From positions 1 to 7,858 of IMG/VR virus record IMGVR_UViG_2850808358_000013: 7,858 nucleotides of DNA; one strand, written 5' to 3'. The notes under the pieces were generated by a model. The model searched no databases, had not been told where the DNA came from, and worked only from the letters and a program-made list of their open reading frames with translations. Source of the stretch: a virus (taxonomy: Duplodnaviria > Heunggongvirae > Uroviricota > Caudoviricetes). Below, piece after piece: positions 1 through 7,858 of the stretch. Each line of letters opens with the position of its first letter. Within the stretch, counting starts at the first letter, position 1. The translations under genes were made by a program, and so were the position numbers.

Positions 1-939
1 TTATTTGATTTCAATTTTGTCCCACTCCCTGCCTCTGTCATCACGATACTGTGATGCCATGGTGTCCGACTTGTGCCCGAGAAGATGTTGAGCAAACTTA
101 TCGCTTATCTGCTTCTCATAGAGTCTTGCAGACAAACTGCGCAACTCGTGAAAGGTAGGTGGATCCCCTTCGAAGGAAAGACCTGATGCTTTTCGTGCGC
201 GCATAAAATACCTTGATACTGTGCCGGATGAAAGCGGTTCACGACGAGTAGATGCAATTATGGTTTCTCCGCCAAGAATCTCTTTGCATTTATCAAGTGT
301 TTCCTTCATTGATATCCCGAGAGCATCAACATGCAATGTTGTAGGGATGGCAATTTTTACGCCTGTTTTGCTTTGCTCGACATAAAGATATCCATCTACG
401 ATATCAGACCACTTCATTTCGCATAAATCACCAACTCGTTGCCCGGTAACAACAGCCAGTTCCATTGCAAGTCTGAGCCAACATGGTGATGATTCTGCTG
501 CTTGATAAATTTTCAGGTATTCGTCAGCCGTAAGTCTTGATCTCCTTACCTCTGATTTTGCTGCGCGAGTGGCAGCGACCGGGTTTGTTGTTATATGGCC
601 TTCAGCTATTGCCTCTCGGAATGCATCGCTCAGTGTTGATCTGATTAACTTGGCTGATGCCGCCTTGCCCTCGTCTATGTATCCATTGAGCATTGCCGCA
701 ATTTCTTTTGTGGTGATGTCTTCAAGTGGAGCATCAGGCAGCCCCCTCCTTATTGCTTTAATTTTGCTCATGTAATTTATGAGTGTCTTCTGCTTGATTC
801 CTCTGCTGGCGAGGATTTTTTCGTAGCGAGCAAGCCATGAATGTAACGTAACAGAATTATCACTGTTGATTCTCGCTGTCAGAGGCTTGTGTTTGTGTCC
901 TGAAAATAACTCAATGTTGGCCTGTATAGCTTCAGTGAT
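1..939 (-). pseudogene. int: Lambda-type tyrosine integrase (Int), 5'-truncated remnant; the longest ATG-initiated ORF is 1..771
   Basis: Minus-strand translation ends ...HLLGHKSDTMASQYRDDRGREWDKIEIK with the stop at 1-3, which I recognise as the C-terminus of phage lambda Int; the catalytic signatures HELR, LLGH and SQY are present. My manual translation upstream of the M at 771 continues in frame (..ITEAIQANIELFSGHKHKPLTARINSDNSVTLHSWLARYEKILASRGIKQKTLINYMSKI..) up to 939, where the frame enters the IS terminus and meets a stop (955-957). About 37 N-terminal codons and the start codon are missing. Confidence 0.9.
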
Positions 940-968
940 TGAGGTAGCCTGAGTTTAACGGACACTCC
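940..968 (+). repeat. Left terminal inverted repeat of the IS600-like element
   Basis: tgaggtagcctgagtttaacggacactcc; pairs with the reverse complement of the right end (tgaggtgtactggcaatagcggacactacc), about 20 of 29 positions identical. Confidence 0.6.
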
Positions 969-1003
969 TTCCTGAAATAGAATGGCATCAGAAGGAGCTA
1001 ATA

Positions 1004-1306
1004 ATGAGCAGAAAAACCCAACGTTACTCTAAAGAGTTCAAAGCTGAAGCTGTCAGAACGGTTCTTGAAAATCAACTTTCGATCAGTGAAGGCGCTTCCC
1101 GATTATCCCTTCCTGAAGGCACTTTAGGACAATGGGTTACCGCCGCCAGAAAAGGGCTCGGTACTCCTGGTTCCCGCACGGTGGCTGAACTGGAATCTGA
1201 AATTCTGCAACTGCGTAAGGCGTTAAATGAAGCTCGCCTTGAGCGAGATATATTAAAAAAAGCAACAGCGTATTTTGCACAGGAGTCGCTGAAAAATACG
1301 CGTTAA
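1004..1306 (+). CDS. IS3-family transposase OrfA (helix-turn-helix plus leucine-zipper-like C-terminus)
   Basis: 100-aa ORF with AGGAG 6 nt upstream of the ATG; the product ends ..ERDILKKATAYFAQESLK, typical of IS3-family OrfA; the slippery run lies near its 3' end. Confidence 0.9.
   Translation: MSRKTQRYSKEFKAEAVRTVLENQLSISEGASRLSLPEGTLGQWVTAARKGLGTPGSRTVAELESEILQLRKALNEARLERDILKKATAYFAQESLKNTR
1255..1261 (+). other. Programmed -1 ribosomal frameshift site (A AAA AAA followed by G) generating the OrfAB fusion transposase
   Basis: The heptamer aaaaaaa + g at 1255-1262 sits in the orfA frame as tta-aaa-aaa-gca; the orfB frame (the frame of the ATG at 1342) is exactly -1 relative to orfA. This is the known IS3-family mechanism (established for IS911 and IS3). 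Confidence 0.6.
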
Positions 1307-1341
1307 TCGAACAATGGCGACAACAATTTCCCATTGAAGCG

Positions 1342-2160
1342 ATGTGTCAGGTATTTGGTGTATCCAGGAGCGGTTATTACAACTGGGTACAGCATGAACC
1401 CTCAGACAGAAAACAAAGTGATGAGCGGCTAAAACTGGAGATTAAGGTGGCACATATCCGCACTCGCGAAACATATGGAACCCGGCGGCTCCAGACGGAG
1501 CTGGCAGAGAATGGCATCATCGTTGGTCGTGACCGACTGGCACGTCTTCGTAAGGAGCTAAGGCTACGCTGTAAGCAGAAACGCAAGTTCAGAGCGACTA
1601 CGAACCCGAACCACAATCTGCCAGTTGCGCCAAATCTGCTGAACCAGACGTTCGCTCCTACAGCACCAAATCAGGTCTGGGTGGCGGACCTGACGTATGT
1701 TGCCACACAGGAGGGATGGTTGTACCTCGCTGGCATCAAAGATGTTTATACGTGCGAAATTGTCGGCTACGCCATGGGAGAGCGCATGACAAAAGAGCTG
1801 ACAGGTAAAGCCCTGTTTATGGCGCTCAGGAGCCAGCGCCCACCTGCCGGGCTAATCCACCACTCTGATCGAGGTTCACAGTACTGCGCATACGATTACC
1901 GGGTCATACAGGAGCAGTTTGGTCTGAAAACATCAATGTCGCGTAAAGGTAACTGTTACGACAACGCTCCGATGGAAAGCTTCTGGGGAACGCTGAAAAA
2001 TGAGAGCCTGAGCCACTATCGTTTTAATAACCGGGATGAAGCCATCTCAGTAATACGGGAATACATTGAGATTTTCTACAATCGTCAGCGTCGTCACTCT
2101 CGTCTGGGGAATATCTCCCCGGCAGCCTTCAGGGAAAAATATCATCAGATGGCTGCTTAA
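1342..2160 (+). CDS. IS3-family transposase OrfB (DDE / retroviral-integrase-like catalytic core)
   Basis: 272-aa ORF containing DDE motif elements (..VWVADLTYV.., ..HHSDRGSQY.., ..NAPMESFWGTLKNE..); it lies in the -1 frame relative to orfA. Confidence 0.9.
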   Translation: MCQVFGVSRSGYYNWVQHEPSDRKQSDERLKLEIKVAHIRTRETYGTRRLQTELAENGIIVGRDRLARLRKELRLRCKQKRKFRATTNPNHNLPVAPNLLNQTFAPTAPNQVWVADLTYVATQEGWLYLAGIKDVYTCEIVGYAMGERMTKELTGKALFMALRSQRPPAGLIHHSDRGSQYCAYDYRVIQEQFGLKTSMSRKGNCYDNAPMESFWGTLKNESLSHYRFNNRDEAISVIREYIEIFYNRQRRHSRLGNISPAAFREKYHQMAA

Positions 2161-2174
2161 AAAAAGAACAAATG

Positions 2175-2203
2175 GTAGTGTCCGCTATTGCCAGTACACC
2201 TCA
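2175..2203 (+). repeat. Right terminal inverted repeat of the IS600-like element
   Basis: ggtagtgtccgctattgccagtacacctca ends in CA-3'; its reverse complement matches the left repeat. Confidence 0.6.
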
Positions 2204-2283
2204 TTCAGTTAATGCCTCGCAGAAAAAGCGCTCCTGCTGCTTAACAAATTCAACGATATCGAACATTTTTTTGGTCCTGAAAA

Positions 2284-2565
2284 TCAGAAAGGACAGGGGG
2301 AGAATTTTCTCTCCCATTCTTCTTCCGCCCGAGCATAGGCGATCGCTGAGATATAATCGTTGTACGCCTCTTCAGCTTTTTCGCCAGTGAGTGCCAGTTG
2401 GGCTTCTTTGGGTAAAAAAAGGCTGCTCATAAGCAATGGTTTATCGGGGAACATGCTGATAAGCTCCTGCGCCCGATCATCAATCCATTTATCCTTTTCA
2501 TCCTGAATATGCTGATTAACCCAGCGACGCTCCTCTATGCGGTCGCAGGTGAGGTATGCGTTCAT
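2284..2565 (-). CDS. Hypothetical small acidic protein (93 aa), last gene of the Rha operon
   Basis: ORF with AGGAG 9 nt upstream of the ATG (reverse complement of 2566-2580); its start is 20 nt after the stop of the upstream ORF. By my count 19 D/E versus 12 K/R. No family recognised. Confidence 0.55.
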   Translation of the reverse strand: MNAYLTCDRIEERRWVNQHIQDEKDKWIDDRAQELISMFPDKPLLMSSLFLPKEAQLALTGEKAEEAYNDYISAIAYARAEEEWERKFSPCPF

Positions 2566-2585
2566 GGCGGAACTCCTGATTCCGG

Positions 2586-2867
2586 TTAATGCATTAAATT
2601 AATTTGTCGGGAAAGCTGACAGACAGGGCAGTTACATTCTTCCTCCTGCTCTTTAGCGAAGAAATATGCAGCGGCCTGTAATGCGATGTCTTCTGGATGT
2701 TCCGCGATAAACATAACATTGCCTTCCGTATCAATAACAGAAATAGCCTCATCAGGCAGGACGACAAAATAGGCGATGATTTTATCATCCATAAAAACTT
2801 CTCCCATTATCGTTTCTGCTGGCGTTATGACGTTTTTTACATTGATATTAATTTTTTGATTGAGCAT
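2586..2867 (-). CDS. Hypothetical small, strongly acidic protein (93 aa) with a C-terminal C-x-C-x-x-C motif
   Basis: ORF with AAGGA about 7 nt upstream of the ATG; its start is 11 nt after the stop of the upstream ORF. About 15 D/E versus 5 K/R; ends ..EECNCPVCQLSRQINLMH. No family recognised. Confidence 0.55.
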   Translation of the reverse strand: MLNQKININVKNVITPAETIMGEVFMDDKIIAYFVVLPDEAISVIDTEGNVMFIAEHPEDIALQAAAYFFAKEQEEECNCPVCQLSRQINLMH

Positions 2868-2878
2868 GATATTTCCTT

Positions 2879-3091
2879 TCAGGCTGGTGAGATTAACGGT
2901 TGGCCTTTATGGTTCAGGTAAACTTCGATTGCATCTGAAATAATGCGGATTTTTTCAATCAGTGAATGTGCGTAAAGTGCATTATTAACGTTAGCTGACG
3001 CCATGTAATAACGCCCGTTGTAAAGAATTGCTGTACCGGGTTTAACGTCCTCGCGAGAAACTAATGCGGTTCCGTAGTGAGGTTTGAGCAT
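2879..3091 (-). CDS. Hypothetical small protein (70 aa)
   Basis: ORF with a strong GGAGG 7 nt upstream of the ATG (reverse complement of 3092-3110: ccGGAGGatttgtcATG). Same strand and tight spacing with the neighbouring genes. Confidence 0.55.
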   Translation of the reverse strand: MLKPHYGTALVSREDVKPGTAILYNGRYYMASANVNNALYAHSLIEKIRIISDAIEVYLNHKGQPLISPA

Positions 3092-3130
3092 GACAAATCC
3101 TCCGGTTAATTAATCCAGATATTTAATTTA

Positions 3131-3153
3131 ATCCCCGATATGTGATCGGGGAT
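3131..3153 (-). other. Perfect 9-bp inverted repeat (hairpin) between the Rha gene and the 70-aa ORF
   Basis: atccccgat-atgtg-atcggggat; on the minus-strand mRNA it is followed by an A/U-rich stretch (UAAAUUAAAUAU) rather than a clean U-tract. Confidence 0.4.
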
Positions 3154-3161
3154 GGGGTTAA

Positions 3162-3800
3162 TTAAAGATTAACGTTGAAACCAAAGCGGGAAGACTTTTC
3201 CGATGTGCGGGAAATATCCAGCAATTTACGGCGCATTTCTTCCGTCAGATGCTTGAAGGCGTTAAATTCGGCGACAGCCGCATCGACGTTATAGCCGTTA
3301 CGACGTAATTCATTAAATATGCGCATTGCAGGGCTTGGCATGTCGAATAAGACGGAGGTATCAAGCTGCAATGTATTTCTATCAACATAGTTCATCGTGG
3401 CATAGGGGTGATGCTCTGAAAACCACGATAAAGGGAAATTGATATTCATCGCAGGAGAAGACAGGGCCAGTTGTTTCTGTTCCCATAGTTGTTTTTCCAT
3501 GCGATCGAATTCAGCAATGTAGGCTTCCTTGAATGCAGCTGCTTTTTTGCCGGTGAAGCCCATCACCAGAAAAACGAAGCCGTTTTTGGTGATTTGGTAG
3601 GCGTTATAGGTATTGCCTCGGTGTTCGAATTTAACCCGCGAAAAGTTGCGGGTTAAGAATTGCTCAGAGCATTCGAGGGATTCTATTTTCTGAACAACAT
3701 GGTGATGCTGCTTGCCAAAAAACTCAGCAATCGAAATAGAAGTAGTGACGGCGCGACCATTTTCGATGGTTACGTCAGGGTGAGAAAGGGTAGTAGCCAT
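3162..3800 (-). CDS. rha: Rha-family phage regulatory protein (pRha domain; antirepressor-like)
   Basis: N-terminus MATTLSHPDVTIENGRAVTTSISIAEFFGKQHHHVVQKIESL...YQITKNGFVFLVMGFTGKKAAAFKEAYIAEFDRME matches the pRha N-terminal domain as I remember it. Start chosen at ATG 3800 (GAGGA 7 nt upstream) rather than the track's 3959; the 53-codon in-frame extension is GC-rich and low-complexity. Confidence 0.8.
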   Translation of the reverse strand: MATTLSHPDVTIENGRAVTTSISIAEFFGKQHHHVVQKIESLECSEQFLTRNFSRVKFEHRGNTYNAYQITKNGFVFLVMGFTGKKAAAFKEAYIAEFDRMEKQLWEQKQLALSSPAMNINFPLSWFSEHHPYATMNYVDRNTLQLDTSVLFDMPSPAMRIFNELRRNGYNVDAAVAEFNAFKHLTEEMRRKLLDISRTSEKSSRFGFNVNL

Positions 3801-3830
3801 AATGACATCCTCAAGTGATAAGTTAATTAA

Positions 3831-3937
3831 CTCACCACCAGAGGTGCTAATCTCATGGGTGGTGAGACGCACAGGGTTAGCACTACCGGTCACTCGAGAA
3901 CCCGGCCAGCCTTGCGGCTGCCCCGCACGCCTCACCA
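3831..3937 (-). promoter_or_regulatory. Structured 5' leader of rha with three copies of a complementary motif allowing alternative hairpins
   Basis: Plus-strand ctcaccacc (3831-3839) and ggtggtgag (3858-3866) form a perfect 9-bp stem; a third copy ctcacca (3931-3937) can alternatively pair with the middle element. cagcc-ttgc-ggctg (3907-3920) is a GCAA (GNRA) tetraloop hairpin on the minus-strand RNA. Confidence 0.4.
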
Positions 3938-3961
3938 TAATTTGAATGTGGCTGTGCATTA

Positions 3962-4043
3962 CGCATAAAAAAACCGCTTCAGCGCGGTTATGCGCTCGAG
4001 TAACTTTCGGGGTGCTAATCCCGGCACCCGTTTTATGAGGTGT
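3962..4043 (-). ncRNA. Putative small RNA (about 80 nt) between a promoter-like motif and an intrinsic terminator; hypothetical
   Basis: Minus-strand -35 TTGACT (4078-4073), 17-nt spacer, -10 TATATT (4055-4050). The predicted transcript 5'-ACACCUCAUAAAACGGGUGCCGGGAUUAGCACCCCGAAAGUUACUCGAGCGCAUAACCGCGCUGAAGCGGUUUUUUU contains a 6-bp GC hairpin (4010-4029) and the terminator hairpin; no plausible ORF. Confidence 0.25.
3967..3989 (-). terminator. Rho-independent terminator acting on minus-strand transcripts
   Basis: Minus-strand RNA AACCGC-GCUGAA-GCGGUU followed by a U-run (plus-strand A-run 3967-3973); the stem is short, so moderate strength; preceded by a second hairpin. Confidence 0.45.
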
Positions 4044-4049
4044 TCGCCA

Positions 4050-4078
4050 AATATAGCCCCGACATCACACGCAGTCAA
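4050..4078 (-). promoter_or_regulatory. Sigma70-like promoter candidate P2 (TTGACT-17-TATATT) on the minus strand
   Basis: Hexamers read directly from the reverse complement; shares the 11-mer TATTGACTGCG with P1. Confidence 0.3.
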
Positions 4079-4383
4079 TATCGTCCTTTCTCGGAAATGC
4101 TTTGGCGGTGCCGCCTGCACCCAAAACATTCCCTGTATTGGTCAGCGCCAACTTCCTGCCAGTGTTGCCCGTTCTCACGCCGTTCTCGCTCTCGCGCGGG
4201 GATACTCTCTCATCGACCGGATCGCACCCGATGATACAGCACGTTTACGTGTAGGGGTCTAAACAGGTCATTGACGCTGTAAAGCTCCAGATTGTTAAAG
4301 AGCATTTTGCGGCGGGTTAAGTCGCGCCGTACGACTGATTTATGTAGCCCTGTGTCAGGGCGCGATGTTTCTGGCTTGGGTAA

Positions 4384-4413
4384 AATATAATAAGTGCAAC
4401 TGATCGCAGTCAA
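4384..4413 (-). promoter_or_regulatory. Sigma70-like promoter candidate P1 (TTGACT-18-TATATT) on the minus strand
   Basis: Reverse complement of agtcaa (4408-4413) and aatata (4384-4389); sits in an AT-rich block; the same TATTGACTGCG 11-mer as P2, about 335 bp upstream of it. Confidence 0.25.
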
Positions 4414-4641
4414 TAGCAAGACTAATAATTTAATTTTAATCTATGTGATTGATTTTTAGATTAATTTATTTATGTAAAAAATATAAGCGAGGATAATGCA
4501 GGTGGTGAGTTATGGAGGATGCGCAAAGAAAAAACGGCGCTGAGGCCGGTTACTCTGTGTTAGATTTGGTGTGAGGGAACCCCTGATAACACTAAGAAAA
4601 GCAGTGAACAGTCAAAGAGAACCCAGCGGGCTTGGTGGCTT

Positions 4642-4670
4642 TTGACAAAAACATCGCCTGTAACTATAAT
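4642..4670 (+). promoter_or_regulatory. Consensus sigma70 promoter for the hicAB-like operon (TTGACA-17-TATAAT)
   Basis: ttgaca at 4642-4647, 17-nt spacer, tataat at 4665-4670. The palindrome aacta-taat-tagtt overlaps the -10 and is a candidate autoregulatory operator. Confidence 0.6.
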
Positions 4671-4699
4671 TAGTTGCAATGTAGCGAAGATGAGATTAT

Positions 4700-4954
4700 G
4701 TGGGTATGGGGAAAGCAGATAAGCTACTGGAAAAGTTTTTAAACAGTAAAAAAACGTTTGAATGGGATGAGTTGGTCGTTTTGTTTTCCTCTCTGGGATA
4801 TGTCAAAAAGGAAATGCAGGGCTCAAGAGTGCGGTTTTTCAATGCTGAAATCAACCACACCATATTAATGCATCGCCCACATCCAGAAAGTTATATTAAA
4901 GGTGGAACGCTGAAAGCGATTAAACAGAATCTGAAAGAGGCTGGGGTATTATGA
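4700..4954 (+). CDS. hicA: HicA-family toxin-like protein (YcfA/HicA fold, putative mRNA interferase); initiation may be at ATG 4706
   Basis: ..KADKLLEKFLNSKKTFEWDELVVLFSSLGY..QGSRVRFFNAEINHTILMHRPHPESYIKGGTLKAIKQNLKEAGVL fits the HicA pattern as I remember it; the stop overlaps the next start (ATGA at 4951-4954). The track start is GTG 4700. Confidence 0.7.
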   Translation: MGMGKADKLLEKFLNSKKTFEWDELVVLFSSLGYVKKEMQGSRVRFFNAEINHTILMHRPHPESYIKGGTLKAIKQNLKEAGVL

Positions 4955-5295
4955 ATCATCTAAAATATAAAGGATATTTAGGTACAGTAGAACCAGATTT
5001 TGAAAATAATATCCTGTACGGAAAACTGGCGTTTATTCGAGACCTGGTAACTTATGAGGCTTCTACATTAGCTGAACTGGAACAGGAGTTTAAGACATCG
5101 GTTGAGCTGTATTTACAGTCTTGTGTGGAGGATGGAAAGGAGCCTGATACCCCGTTTAAAGGTGTGTTTAACGTCAGACTTGATCCAGAACTGCATCGTC
5201 GGGTCGCTGAAATGGCGATGGAAGAAGATTTATCACTGAACGCCTTTGTTAATAAGGCGCTGGAAAAAGAAGTCAACCATCACACAGGGGCTTAA
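4951..5295 (+). CDS. hicB: HicB-family antitoxin-like protein with a C-terminal ribbon-helix-helix DNA-binding domain
   Basis: N-terminal YKGYLGTVEPDFENNILYGKLAFIRDL..EEPDTPF resembles HicB N-domains; C-terminal KGVFNVRLDPELHRRVAEMAMEEDLSLNAFVNKALEKEV is RHH-like; 4-bp overlap with hicA. Confidence 0.7.
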   Translation: MNHLKYKGYLGTVEPDFENNILYGKLAFIRDLVTYEASTLAELEQEFKTSVELYLQSCVEDGKEPDTPFKGVFNVRLDPELHRRVAEMAMEEDLSLNAFVNKALEKEVNHHTGA

Positions 5296-5382
5296 TGTTC
5301 CCTTCGTCTTTGACATCCTCACCGCCGAAGAATGGGGAATTTACGGCGCACTGGTAAATGGTGGGGCGAGCAGGAGGCAAAC

Positions 5383-5408
5383 AAAACCCGGCACCAAGGC
5401 CGGGTTTT
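5383..5408. terminator. Bidirectional Rho-independent terminator between the convergent hicAB-like operon and the repressor operon
   Basis: aaaacccggc-accaag-gccgggtttt: a perfect 10-bp stem with a 6-bp GC core and a 6-nt loop, with an A-run upstream and TTTTGTT downstream, so a U-tract follows on both strands. Confidence 0.6.
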
Positions 5409-5409
5409 G

Positions 5410-5580
5410 TTATTGGTGCATTTGGCAGGTTGTAATATCTGGTCCATAAGCCAAAGTAAAAACAGGCTTGTTGATCAAGCCCATGTTCTTTAATGATTGA
5501 ATCATTTTTCCTTGCTCGCTAACTTTTTGCTTGCTAAGTATTTCTTCCACTTGTTGTGTCAAGGATTTGTCTTTGTTCAT
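5410..5580 (-). CDS. Unlisted 56-codon ORF between the repressor gene and the terminator; hypothetical
   Basis: Manual translation of the minus strand gives MNKDKSLTQQVEEILSKQKVSEQGKMIQSLKNMGLINKPVFTLAYGPDITTCQMHQ; the stop lies 2 nt from the terminator stem; only a weak GTGAG Shine-Dalgarno. Below the ORF-track length cutoff. Confidence 0.3.
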   Translation of the reverse strand: MNKDKSLTQQVEEILSKQKVSEQGKMIQSLKNMGLINKPVFTLAYGPDITTCQMHQ

Positions 5581-5701
5581 TTATGGCTCACTTGATTGCG
5601 ACTGCTCCCCGCCCGCATTGGGCGAGGGTTCTCGGAGATTTTTCGCTGAAAAAGGAAATAAAATAGCCTCCCTGCAAGGTTATTGATATCATCCTGTGAG
5701 T

Positions 5702-6421
5702 TCAATCAAAAGTCTCATCATTCCACTGCGACTTTATGACCTTTCCGACAAACGGGCAGTTTTCGTTACACTCAATCATGTCGAATCGTGGGTTGAGTGG
5801 CTCCAGGTACGCTTTACCGCTCTCACGAATGAATCGTTTGAAGGTGAATTCATCGCCATTCATTCGGGCCACGCAAAAATCGCCATCCTCAATCTCCCGC
5901 TCAGGGTCAACGAGTATCAGCATCCCTTCGGGGAAACTGGGTTTACCACCCTGCGGCGCGGTCATTGAATGCCCCTTGACCTCCAGCCAGAACGACCTGT
6001 CACTGGCTTTTGTGGTGGTGGAGATCCACTTAATCGCATCCTTTGCGGTGTACGAAAAATCATCCATTGAGAAAGCTCCAGCCTGTACGCAGGAGAGTAA
6101 CGGATATTCGTAATATTTCTCGAACAGGTTACGCCTGTTTCCCGGTGTGTGGGTACGAATACTGCGTAACAAATCACTCAGATCTGGATTAATTTCTTCC
6201 GCAGGAACCTGTAATAAAGCCGCAAACTTAAGGGTATTTTCAGTATTTAACGCAATTTTTGCGTTCAATAACTGACTAACAGCCCCCTGCGTTTTGAAGC
6301 CGAGGATATCTGCGGCTTTTTCCTGGCTTAGGGATAGCTGTTTCCGTTTTTCATCCCAGATTTTGCGCAGTCGTTCAGCGTTCTGGATGTCTTTGTCAGT
6401 AATTGTAATTTTCTTCGTCAT
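5702..6421 (-). CDS. cI: Lambda cI-like prophage repressor (N-terminal HTH, C-terminal LexA/S24 autopeptidase domain)
   Basis: The C-terminal half is nearly colinear with lambda cI as I recall it (..[16 protein letters not shown].., ..[30 protein letters not shown].., ..[13 protein letters not shown].., ..[14 protein letters not shown]); Ala-Gly cleavage site, Ser (GHSM) and Lys (FKRF) all present. Start set at ATG 6421 (GGAGG 4 nt upstream) rather than the track's 6460. Confidence 0.9.
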
Positions 6422-6472
6422 AGTGCCTCCAATTTTATTAGCAACACAAATATTTATCAAATAGCTGGCCTG

Positions 6473-6500
6473 TTGACATTTAAATCAGGTAAGCTAATAT
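6473..6500 (+). promoter_or_regulatory. pR-like sigma70 promoter for the cro-like gene (TTGACA-16-TAATAT) in the divergent repressor/cro intergenic region
   Basis: ttgaca at 6473-6478 and taatat at 6495-6500; GGGAGG 6 nt before the ATG at 6527; the palindrome atttaaat lies in the spacer. The leftward repressor promoter and the operators were not resolved. Confidence 0.5.
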
Positions 6501-6526
6501 CGGAAAATTGAAATGGGAGGATCTCT

Positions 6527-6766
6527 ATGACTCTTGACGAGTACTTGAGACAAAGCTCTATCAGACAAGCCGATTTTGCGGCGATTGTTGGAGTTTCTCA
6601 GGGATTTGTCAGTGGGGTTATTACAGGGAGATACATGCCTCAGGGGCGGAAAGCCATTGAATGGGCAAAAGCTACAGACTGGAATGTAACTCCCCATGAA
6701 CTAAACCCGCATGACTACCTAAACATGGAAGATGGTATTCCGCTTCATGTAAGGCAAACAGCCTGA
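6527..6766 (+). CDS. Cro / YdaS-like small HTH regulator (79 aa)
   Basis: Divergent from the repressor gene with a strong SD; ..IRQADFAAIVGVSQGFVSGVITGRYMPQGRKAIEWAKATDWNVTPHELNPHDY fits the Cro/YdaS-type HTH pattern as I remember it. Confidence 0.7.
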   Translation: MTLDEYLRQSSIRQADFAAIVGVSQGFVSGVITGRYMPQGRKAIEWAKATDWNVTPHELNPHDYLNMEDGIPLHVRQTA

Positions 6767-6770
6767 TAAC

Positions 6771-6783
6771 CCTCCATCGGAGG
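6771..6783 (+). promoter_or_regulatory. Hairpin that pairs the Shine-Dalgarno sequence of the downstream ORF with an anti-SD
   Basis: cctcc-atc-ggagg: a perfect 5-bp stem whose 3' arm GGAGG is the SD located 5 nt upstream of the GTG start at 6789; it begins 5 nt after the cro-like stop. Confidence 0.4.
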
Positions 6784-6788
6784 TGTGA

Positions 6789-7070
6789 GTGAACAGGCAA
6801 ATCAAAACGGTTATGCCCGATCAGTACTGTGATGCTGATCGGGACTGGATACAGGAGCAATTGTTACAGCTAGACCCGACCACCAGGGTAAAAATTGCAG
6901 CAGAGTACGCGAGAGTGTACCAGGAAGAGTGGGACAAGGAGCCTGTATCGTTCAGGAAGGGCAACAGGGCAAGACGGAGCGCCAACACCCGGTTACGGGT
7001 GTATGTCCAGAAGTACGCGAGAGCCAGCCGTGGCTGGATGTTTTCGCCAGTAGCGATACGGAAGGAATAG
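6789..7070 (+). CDS. Hypothetical protein (93 aa; GTG start) in the position of cII / early-right genes; basic C-terminal half
   Basis: ORF directly downstream of the cro-like gene with GGAGG at -5; product ..DRDWIQEQLLQLDPTTRVKIAAEYARVYQEEWDKEP..RKGNRARRSANTRLRVYVQKYARASRGW..; no family recognised. An alternative ATG lies at 6813. Confidence 0.5.
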   Translation: MNRQIKTVMPDQYCDADRDWIQEQLLQLDPTTRVKIAAEYARVYQEEWDKEPVSFRKGNRARRSANTRLRVYVQKYARASRGWMFSPVAIRKE

Positions 7071-7096
7071 ATCTCATCAAGGTTATTATTTTTTTG

Positions 7097-7141
7097 TGAA
7101 ATGATTTCGCATGAAATCATTGCGCTTGAAATTTTACTAAG
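7097..7141. repeat. Three TGAAAT motifs at exact 15-bp spacing, with an embedded 9-bp inverted repeat
   Basis: TGAAAT at 7097, 7112 and 7127; units 1 and 2 match at 12 of 15 positions; inverted repeat aatgatttc (7100-7108) / gaaatcatt (7113-7121) with a 4-nt spacer; preceded by a T7 run and followed by tandem AAGGGGGT / AAGGGGGC (7142-7157). Confidence 0.45.
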
Positions 7142-7307
7142 AAGGGGGTAAGGGGGCAGATCTGTAACATCCGTGCCTGTAAGGGCACTACCAGAGGAAG
7201 GCAGCTCCATAGGTTAGGTAGATCACTGTATAGGGTGAGATGGTTTCTGACGAAATTGTTATTATGCTAACCATTACGGTAGAAATAGTACCATACTCAT
7301 CAAACAT

Positions 7308-7483
7308 GTGGTTATCAGCCTGCTCGGAAACAAATTCTACACCGGAAAAGACAAGGTCACGTTTGATTATGTGCTGGCTGCCAAATTGCGTGATGCCGGA
7401 CTGGCGATCGAACGTAATTATCTGGTTGATATGGCAACGGTAAGCGCGGATTCGTCGATATCATGGTCGTTGCCCCATCTGGT
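7308..7483 (+). pseudogene. Fragment of an unidentified gene, 3'-truncated by the IS911 insertion
   Basis: Protein-like frame ..GNKFYTGKDKVTFDYVLAAKLRDAGLAIERNYLVDMATVSADSSISWSLPHL runs straight into the IS terminus at 7484; the final residues and stop of the track ORF are encoded by the IS end. No convincing start or RBS (GTG at 7308 only). Confidence 0.35.

Positions 7484-7858
<375 letters not shown>

Follow-up and report, generated by a model that had tools for sequence, protein, structure and literature searches.

A 93-residue protein of PHROG 852 encoded after cro, a candidate accessory of Eru1-type helicase–primase replication modules

Phages of the Eru1 type that carry Shiga toxin 2a (Stx2a) are found in the most virulent outbreak strains of enterohaemorrhagic Escherichia coli (EHEC), and their unstable lysogeny has been attributed to the replication region (PMC8044961). 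The Eru1 unit of these non-lambdoid Stx phages comprises a helicase (eru1A), a Toprim primase (eru1B) and a DUF1367 protein (eru1C) (PMC8044961). Only these three genes were named by Llarena et al. 2021, who reported that Eru1 phages are devoid of N, CII and CIII homologues and did not discuss the small open reading frame (ORF) that is the subject of the present work (PMC8044961). This ORF codes for a protein of 93 amino acids (aa) and lies directly after a cro-like gene in a stretch of 7,858 nucleotides (nt), hereafter the window, which corresponds to positions 1 to 7,858 of the IMG/VR virus record IMGVR_UViG_2850808358_000013 (Caudoviricetes). Our literature search found nothing on either the Eru1 origin or the 93-aa ORF. 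The sequence itself is already present in databases many times; the new elements are that this small ORF is assigned to the replication module and that a cII role is argued against.

The 93-aa ORF emerges as a fourth component of the Eru1 module, kept with the helicase more widely than DUF1367. We consider its product to be a replication accessory working with the helicase in the Eru1-type helicase–primase module, a reading to which we give a probability of roughly 0.55, the detailed contacts made by the protein being proposed with lower confidence. A role as a helicase or primase accessory, acting in primosome assembly, is favoured because a helicase of superfamily 2 (SF2) is the partner conserved wherever the protein occurs. 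Below, the family of the 93-aa protein is abbreviated FAM, and HEL and PRI stand for the SF2 helicase and the primase. The same SF2 helicase and primase lie downstream of the homologue in Fels-1, OS31, a Klebsiella prophage and Vibrio phage 1.233.B, separated from it by a non-coding gap and in some cases also by one small gene. A survey of IMG/VR yielded 80 loci, about 50 of them non-redundant, and in 47 of these FAM precedes an Eru1A-like helicase (58–100% identity) and an Eru1B-like primase (52–100%), with a gap of 130–700 nt between FAM and the helicase that may or may not contain one variable small gene. When distant relatives were added and the family was clustered at 85% identity, 44 non-redundant clusters were obtained, 41 of which have the SF2 helicase at most five genes away from FAM; of the remaining three, two are truncated on the side where it would lie, and one showed no helicase within range. 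Two gene orders account for this association. The first, cI / cro / (CII) / FAM / gap / (small variable gene) / HEL / PRI, is found in about 27 lineages, and the second, SSB / x / HEL / VRR-NUC nuclease / FAM, in about 16 mostly Vibrio-type lineages, in which the helicase comprises about 650 aa and is 22–25% identical to that of the first order. The reverse survey started from the helicase and took a single genome for each species; FAM was upstream of the helicase in 43 of 44 gammaproteobacterial species (Enterobacterales, Gilliamella and one metagenome-assembled genome, L208, where no gap separates FAM from the helicase start). The helicase itself is RadD-like (PDB 6jde, E 1e-16) and ends in a C-terminal zinc ribbon.

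The sequences of the module diverge together. Pairwise divergences gave Spearman rho values of 0.53 for FAM and helicase, 0.65 for FAM and primase and 0.58 for helicase and primase, against -0.01 for FAM and cI. These values, the 43 of 44 species and the exchanges of cro all indicate co-inheritance with helicase and primase, not with the immunity genes. Copies of FAM at least 96% identical to one another sit beside two unrelated cro genes and adjoin two different downstream cassettes of gene and repeats, the gene being only 36% identical between the two. FAM thus forms a separate mosaic unit that remains associated with helicase and primase, being linked to these genes and diverging with them, independently of both the immunity genes and the variable repeats.

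Some further features of these loci were observed. In loci with the second gene order (L087-L089, L096, L103, L120, L136 and L158), the gene preceding FAM (PHROG 824, about 138 aa, overlapping the FAM start) codes for a VRR-NUC nuclease (PDB 4qbl, E 1.6e-10), and the phiHSIC helicase contains an intein with Hint and LAGLIDADG domains. The idea that the protein of about 125 aa encoded downstream of FAM is a VRR-NUC homologue was unsupported (hhalign probability 1.7%). In the deposited annotations of Klebsiella phage ST340-VIM1phi10.1 (L005, 4052-4438, minus strand) and phiHSIC (L088, 4462-4791, minus strand), an ORF on the opposite strand has been called and the real PHROG 852 gene missed, and we flag these as mis-annotations.

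The gene is genuine, conserved and under purifying selection. Its product matches the hidden Markov model of PHROG 852, a phage protein family of unassigned function, over residues 2-92 (profile positions 4-94 of 98; E 9.7e-43, 145 bits), a significant full-length match that makes it a member of this family, for which the profile search returned 413 clusters (50% identity) at E<=1e-3. Comparison with a 73%-identical orthologue gave a dN/dS of 0.26 (dS 0.76). No longer form of the ORF exists, since an in-frame TGA is present at 6786. Conservation of the antisense ORF overlapping the gene (6821-7210, 129 aa) was looked for in relatives and not found, this ORF being absent or of very different size, with a counterpart of only 55 aa in the closest relative. 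The exact protein sequence of the window has no record in the contig index.

The acidic N-terminal half and highly basic C-terminal half remarked upon in the first-pass annotation, a reading of the letters of the window, were confirmed by calculation: residues 1-52 have a pI of 4.5 (11 D+E, 7 K+R), and residues 53-93 a pI of 12.0 (12 K+R, 1 D+E). The AlphaFold2 model built from 133 homologues (predicted local distance difference test, pLDDT, 89.5; predicted template modelling score, pTM, 0.73) consists of three helices, at residues 15-26, 30-50 and 54-80. The core extends over approximately residues 9-80, many relatives comprising just 66-75 aa and starting near window residue 14, while conservation is lost in the C-terminal tail (residues 81-93). 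The acidic helix 1 carries a conserved D17-W20-I-x-E-Q-L, and helix 3, 27 residues long with nine K+R and no acidic residue, displays its signature residues on one face. Across the 133 diverse members, N66 is the sole invariant residue, and A61, R62, A65, L69 and R70 are conserved at 90% or more. On these features of the sequence, nucleic-acid binding by the protein is plausible. A basic leucine zipper (bZIP) reading, based on the resemblance by eye of the window's 'ARRS' to a basic region, was rejected in view of the family consensus (ARHE/ARRxANTRLR), the spacing of Asn, Ala and Arg, which is unlike the bZIP signature, and zero bZIP matches in Pfam.

The family remains without a characterised counterpart. 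Scans of the protein with Pfam (E<=1), NCBIfam and PADLOC (0 families at E<=0.01), as well as a Pfam scan of the 133 members, gave zero matches. PDB sequence searches with 30- and 133-sequence profiles returned chance matches only (E>=0.057), and Foldseek found no structural neighbour of two AlphaFold models in the PDB (best E 1.1-1.3) and just unnamed family members in BFVD. The description of the protein as unrecognised thus stands, the profile, PDB-sequence, fold and PADLOC searches having yielded no characterised family, and the confident homology to a well-characterised family that would have spoken against it did not appear in Pfam, NCBIfam, PADLOC or the PDB. With regard to particular classes, no anti-phage defence family was matched in PADLOC, which covers defence and not anti-defence. 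A winged-helix or helix-turn-helix (HTH) initiator of the RepL, HTH_36 or lambda O type finds no Pfam match among the 133 members, the modelled fold is three-helical, and identical proteins adjoin different repeats. For helicase loaders (lambda P, DnaC/IstB-type AAA+), there was no match in Pfam, NCBIfam or the PDB, and the protein is too small for an ATPase, having 93 aa and no P-loop.

Lambda CII is of similar size and is also encoded directly after cro in the pR operon, and the first-pass annotation had placed the gene in the cII position, between the cro-like gene (6527-6766) and a repeat-rich non-coding region, while finding the protein dissimilar to lambda CII. Both the location and the dissimilarity hold. 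Aligned by hhalign, the 133-sequence family profile gave a probability of 0.1% against lambda CII (its sequence entered by hand) and of 0.09% against the 186-type CII of OS31, there was no match to PF06892 by Pfam, and no HTH unit could be recognised in the model with its three long helices. Homology to cII was rejected on these comparisons. In Serratia phage OS31, p16 is a true CII (PF06892, 33.8 bits versus a cut-off of 26) encoded by a separate gene between cro and the homologue, and a second locus also has a true CII alongside the family member. Since OS31 carries both side by side, the family and CII have different functions, and the 'cII position' is a positional coincidence only; this positional annotation is corrected here. 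The family is likewise no 186/P2-type CII (PF06892, Phage_CP76), nor is it the only gene between cro and the replication genes in OS31; unlike lambda CII and 186/P2 CII, it has neither sequence or profile similarity to them nor a predicted HTH, and it goes evolutionarily with replication genes. The 93-aa protein is probably not a cII-type lysogeny regulator, and its gene context argues against the function of a CII-type activator, acting at pRE/pI-type promoters in lysogenisation. Of the two functions that had been suggested from its location, lysogeny establishment and replication initiation, the second has gained ground, the gene co-occurring and co-diverging with helicase and primase, and the first has lost it, the gene not following cI and the CII of OS31 being separate.

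Lambda P, P2 B, SPP1 G39P, DnaT and PriC are small, mostly helical, non-enzymatic proteins, encoded beside the replication helicase or initiator gene, which bridge the origin or nucleic acid and the helicase. We propose a functional analogy with these loaders and adaptors for the 93-aa protein, which has no homology or fold match to them; moreover, loaders serve hexameric helicases of the DnaB type, whereas the helicase here is an SF2 RadD-like enzyme. As an accessory, the protein would be made early from pR, directly after cro, and would work with the RadD-like helicase, and in temperate phages also with the zinc-ribbon/Toprim primase, in starting the phage primosome. Its acidic N-terminal helices may contact a protein partner, and the invariant Asn/Arg/Ala face of helix 3 may contact nucleic acid in a structure-dependent manner, for example at opened origin DNA, a fork or an R-loop. 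We infer the physical partnership with helicase or primase, the nucleic-acid binding by helix 3 and the loading or initiation role alike.

A fusion was found in one relative, the metagenomic protein P0170 (883 aa), in which residues 4-297 match the 'DNA primase' of PDB 7ola (797 aa; E 1.5e-13), the last 73 residues constitute a FAM domain with a degenerate signature (ANDDLR versus ANTRLR), and a weak, sub-threshold match to DUF5906 was noticed. This architecture recalls self-loading primase-helicases, namely P4 alpha and the Rep proteins of Staphylococcus aureus pathogenicity islands (SaPI), whose C-terminal domains are winged-helix. The 93-aa protein, in contrast, is three-helical without a beta-wing, and the likeness comes from a single fusion example.

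Several observations weigh against a replication accessory working with the helicase. The synteny and co-divergence could reflect mere linkage within a co-inherited module and not a physical partnership, and no homology or fold match to a known loader, initiator or primosomal protein was found (best PDB Foldseek E 1.1-1.3). P0170 is the sole long protein or fusion among the 150 best representatives, and the domain is fused there to a different helicase type. Among betaproteobacterial prophages with the helicase–primase pair, FAM was detectable in 0 of 9; since the pair exists in all nine without detectable FAM, the latter is not intrinsic to the helicase–primase machinery. FAM is also absent beside more remote helicase homologues. 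Finally, the recombination breakpoint between two loci with identical proteins (L077 and L082) falls just past the first downstream hairpin, and the protein may bind this adjacent hairpin. In the betaproteobacterial loci L210-L217 and L221, a conserved protein of about 95-100 aa (KNW..FQHY..R.PPWIKLH..LLDD) abuts the helicase gene instead of FAM and may be its functional counterpart.

Table 1. Features of the window around the 93-aa gene.
Feature	Position	Strand	Details and basis
cI-like repressor gene	5702-6460	-	HTH_3 and Peptidase_S24 domains
pR-like sigma-70 promoter	6473..6500	+	TTGACA-16-TAATAT; consensus scan, 10/12 matches
cro-like HTH gene, upstream neighbour	6527..6766	+	PF01381, E 1.5e-5; phrog_35, E 5e-17
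Shine-Dalgarno GGAGG	6779..6783	+	5 bases 5' of the GTG start; read from sequence
93-aa gene	6789..7070	+	GTG start, stop codon included; PHROG 852 member; ORF listing
Conserved core (residues 9-80), three helices	6813..7028	+	Family alignments and AlphaFold2 model
Helix 3, basic (pI 12)	6948..7028	+	Signature N59..A61 R62..A65 N66 T67 R68 L69 R70; alignment and charge figures
Three 15-nt TGAAAT-initiated units	7097..7141	+	First two form a 9-bp perfect hairpin/palindrome pair, 7100-7108 / 7113-7121
G-tract GGGGGTAAGGGGG	7144..7156	+	Transcribed-sense strand; followed by GATC at 7159-7162
Short G+C hairpin GTGCC / GGCAC	7173..7188	+	Relatives: 6-bp stem, GTAA loop; 100% of cells paired
Conserved core motif CATAGGTTAGGTAGATCAC	7208..7226	+	Contains GATC; alignment
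Inverted repeat GATGGTT ... AACCATT	7239..7275	+	Just 5' of the next gene
Remnant of ~128-aa gene (PHROG 1347 family)	7293..7483	+	Alignment with E. coli JNEC-KY204; translations
IS911 left end with orfA	7484..7858	+	100% identity to 'IS3-like element IS911 family transposase'

The non-coding region that follows FAM in temperate enterobacterial phages appears origin-like, and its counterpart in the window (7071-7292) could be a transcription-dependent origin, involving an R-loop or a G-quadruplex, or else a structured leader RNA (Table 1). Close relatives differ hardly at all over positions 7127-7233; the flanks are variable, but compensatory and G-U changes preserve pairing in the plus-strand hairpins. 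In 11 close relatives, two hairpins stay paired through G-C, A-U and G-U states, in 95% of cells, with a covariation score above all 500 shuffles, a signal that is modest, since just two pairs show double changes. One stem pair of the hairpin formed by the TGAAAT units passes from G-C to A-U, with G-U as intermediate, and one pair of the inverted repeat before the next gene occurs in compensatory A-U, G-C and G-U states in the 11 relatives, 100% of cells being paired. G-tracts occupy the equivalent position in the Stx phages, Fels-1, Serratia, Klebsiella and many metagenomic relatives, and GTTAGGT is found in 12 of 23 divergent locus groups. Rfam matched nothing between 6400 and 7500. Reading the CATAGGTTAGGTAGATC core as a promoter was rejected, as neither inspection by eye nor a scan gave acceptable -35 and -10 elements, and the putative -10 is not conserved in relatives.

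Hairpins of other kinds were noticed in relatives. Those of the Fels-1 type (L003, 4330-4470; L053, L059, L077 and L082) contain GCGAAGC within a hairpin at the position matching the short G+C hairpin of the window, in the form of TAGTGCGAAGCACTGG or TAGCGCGAAGCGCTGG, with a compensatory stem change. The oligonucleotide d(GCGAAGC) is reportedly an unusually stable DNA mini-hairpin of phage replication origins, studied by Hirao and colleagues. In L003, L005, L041, L050, L051, L053 and L084, the first 40-60 nt past the stop codon of the homologue contain one or two hairpins in which the loop CTTAAAGGTG is conserved, and their stems vary by locus yet remain complementary (ACCGGG/TCCGGT, CAGG/CCTG, CGGG/CCCG, CCAGA/TCTGG). 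Loci of the window type are devoid of hairpins with this loop.

Taking the gene and this region together, we can tentatively propose, as a more doubtful extension, that PHROG 852 stands for a new class of accessory factors of the primosome or helicase, whose three-helix fold would be novel. It would be the obligatory partner of RadD-like SF2 helicase–primase pairs in gammaproteobacterial phages, including the Stx2a phages of the O104:H4 and O103:H25 outbreaks, and would act at an unusual transcription-dependent origin in which GATC sites and stable hairpins accompany a G-tract able to form an R-loop or a G-quadruplex. If true, such a class would supply the missing initiation or loading component of Eru1 replication. 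The survey provides a concrete gene and an origin-like element for work on the initiation of Eru1 replication.

Among the alternatives, we regard as unlikely that FAM is a host-interface factor, which would tie the module to a component of gammaproteobacterial hosts (DnaB/DnaC, SSB, or Dam/SeqA at GATC) or shield it from host defence. The presence of FAM in 43 of 44 gammaproteobacterial versus 0 of 9 betaproteobacterial modules is what such a factor would produce, and so is its persistence through changes of origin type and gene order; GATC sites are, in addition, conserved in the origin-like core. Being RadD-like, the SF2 helicase probably does not serve as the replicative helicase, and one from the host may have to be recruited. 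However, no match was found in PADLOC, whose models concern defence only, the co-divergence with helicase and primase fits a partner of phage proteins, and the betaproteobacterial absence could result from divergence past detection or from replacement by the protein of about 100 aa.

Less likely still is a sequence-specific origin-binding initiator, which would nucleate replication at the repeats and hairpins of 7097-7141 or at the 7208-7226 core. A basic helix with conserved Asn and Arg would suit such a protein, as would its location in temperate phages, where it is encoded by the last gene before the origin-like non-coding region, and in loci such as L004, L005, L041 and L045, which have no other small gene between it and the helicase, it is the only small DNA-binding candidate. 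In P0170, the domain is at the extreme C-terminus of a primase-helicase, and P4 alpha and SaPI Rep have their origin-binding domains at the C-terminus. The first hairpin after the stop codon also stays with the gene across the breakpoint that distinguishes L077 from L082. Against this, these two loci encode proteins that are 100% identical, yet their repeats belong to separate families (GTACTAG and TAGACGTCTA) and the small genes downstream also differ; since identical copies adjoin different repeats, FAM does not set repeat specificity. No co-variation between protein and repeats was found: the concerted G/A changes of the repeats in 11 relatives are unmatched in the protein, whose core is invariant, and resemble compensatory hairpin changes passing through G-U pairs. 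Neither the G-tract nor the CATAGGTTAGGTAGATC core is present in the iteron/RepL-type and Vibrio loci, although the protein persists there with its invariant residues, and in some iteron loci, a separate RepL/HTH_36 protein acts as the initiator-type component. No k-mer is common to all locus groups, and no such gap is present beside the gene in the second gene order or in L208. The earlier suggestion that the protein binds the repeats at 7097-7160 is weakened by the same observations, namely identical proteins with different repeats, repeat changes unmatched in the protein, and persistence of the protein without the origin-like region.

The least likely candidate is a transcription regulator in the lambda sense, either a cII analogue or an N-like, arginine-rich RNA-binding antiterminator that would act on the downstream hairpins and let pR transcripts reach the replication and Q genes: a gene directly after cro in phages without N, CII and CIII homologues (PMC8044961), an arginine-rich helix, compensatory and G-U hairpin changes indicative of a structured sense strand, possibly the pR transcript, and Fels-1-type hairpins with conserved CTTAAAGGTG loop and variable stems after the stop codon would all agree with it, but the protein resembles neither lambda nor 186 CII, lacks an HTH, coexists with a true CII in OS31 and the second locus, diverges without correlation with cI, follows helicase and VRR-NUC in the replication/recombination clusters of about 16 lineages, away from any cI or cro, and is fused to a primase-helicase in one relative.

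With regard to the window itself, the cI-cro-ORF segment is 97.6% identical to that of Eru1-type Stx2a phages of the genus Oslovirus (P13374, TL-2011c, Lyz12581Vzw, Ss-VASD), and the 93-aa protein is about 96% identical to a 'hypothetical protein' of P13374 and TL-2011c. The ORF is unannotated in many Stx-phage records. Opposite the pR-like promoter is a divergent pRM-like site serving the cI-like repressor gene. Transcription from the pR-like promoter would cover cro and the 93-aa gene, and in relatives with an intact module the replication genes as well. Intact Stx phages display the order cI (leftward), cro, ORF, a gap of about 210 nt, a 125-aa ORF, DEAD/DEAH helicase, Toprim primase, DUF1367, NinG, NinH, Q and stx2, and the downstream SF2 helicase (ResIII/DEAD/Helicase_C) and primase (Zn-ribbon/DUF7146/Toprim) are present in the close relatives, as in the 47 of about 50 non-redundant loci. 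Unlike these, the window has lost all three eru1 genes. Similarity to the Stx phages breaks at 7064, two codons before the stop of the 93-aa gene, and beyond that point, up to about 7483, the sequence corresponds to a variant of three E. coli genomes (e.g., JNEC-KY204) with a different gene of about 128 aa. This gene is now a pseudogene, its ATG having become ATA at 7293-7295 and one G having been lost at about 7433-7434 (frameshift), before it is cut by IS911 at 7484. The helicase and primase genes are absent from the window because the neighbour is this pseudogene remnant and the insertion sequence (IS) begins at 7484. The prophage is decayed and its replication module dead, and with the neighbour pseudogenised and IS911 in place of helicase, primase and DUF1367, the 93-aa gene is a stranded relic. 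The copy in the window is therefore of low biological importance. In relatives, the ~128-aa gene is exchanged as one cassette with the repeats around the G-tract, and its product may thus be an origin-specific factor. A weak PD-(D/E)xK-like motif was noticed in this protein (REase_MTES_1575, E 0.003).

The window contains further mobile and regulatory elements. IS600 (99.5-99.7% identity, ~930-2200) splits a lambda-type integrase gene, of which the C-terminal 256 codons are left at 1-771 (minus strand). A C4 antisense RNA (RF01695, 78.6 bits; 3855-3942, minus strand) and isrK (RF01394, 61.6 bits; 3967-4043, minus strand) are located directly upstream of, and partly overlap, a regulatory gene with Rha/Ash domains (3162-3959, minus strand), and this cassette looks like a P1/P7-style antisense-controlled, antirepressor-like system. 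Between the Rha cassette and cI, a HicA toxin (4700-4954, plus strand; PF07927, E 1e-11) and a HicB antitoxin (4951-5295, plus strand; PF05534, E 7e-20) are encoded by genes whose stop and start codons overlap.

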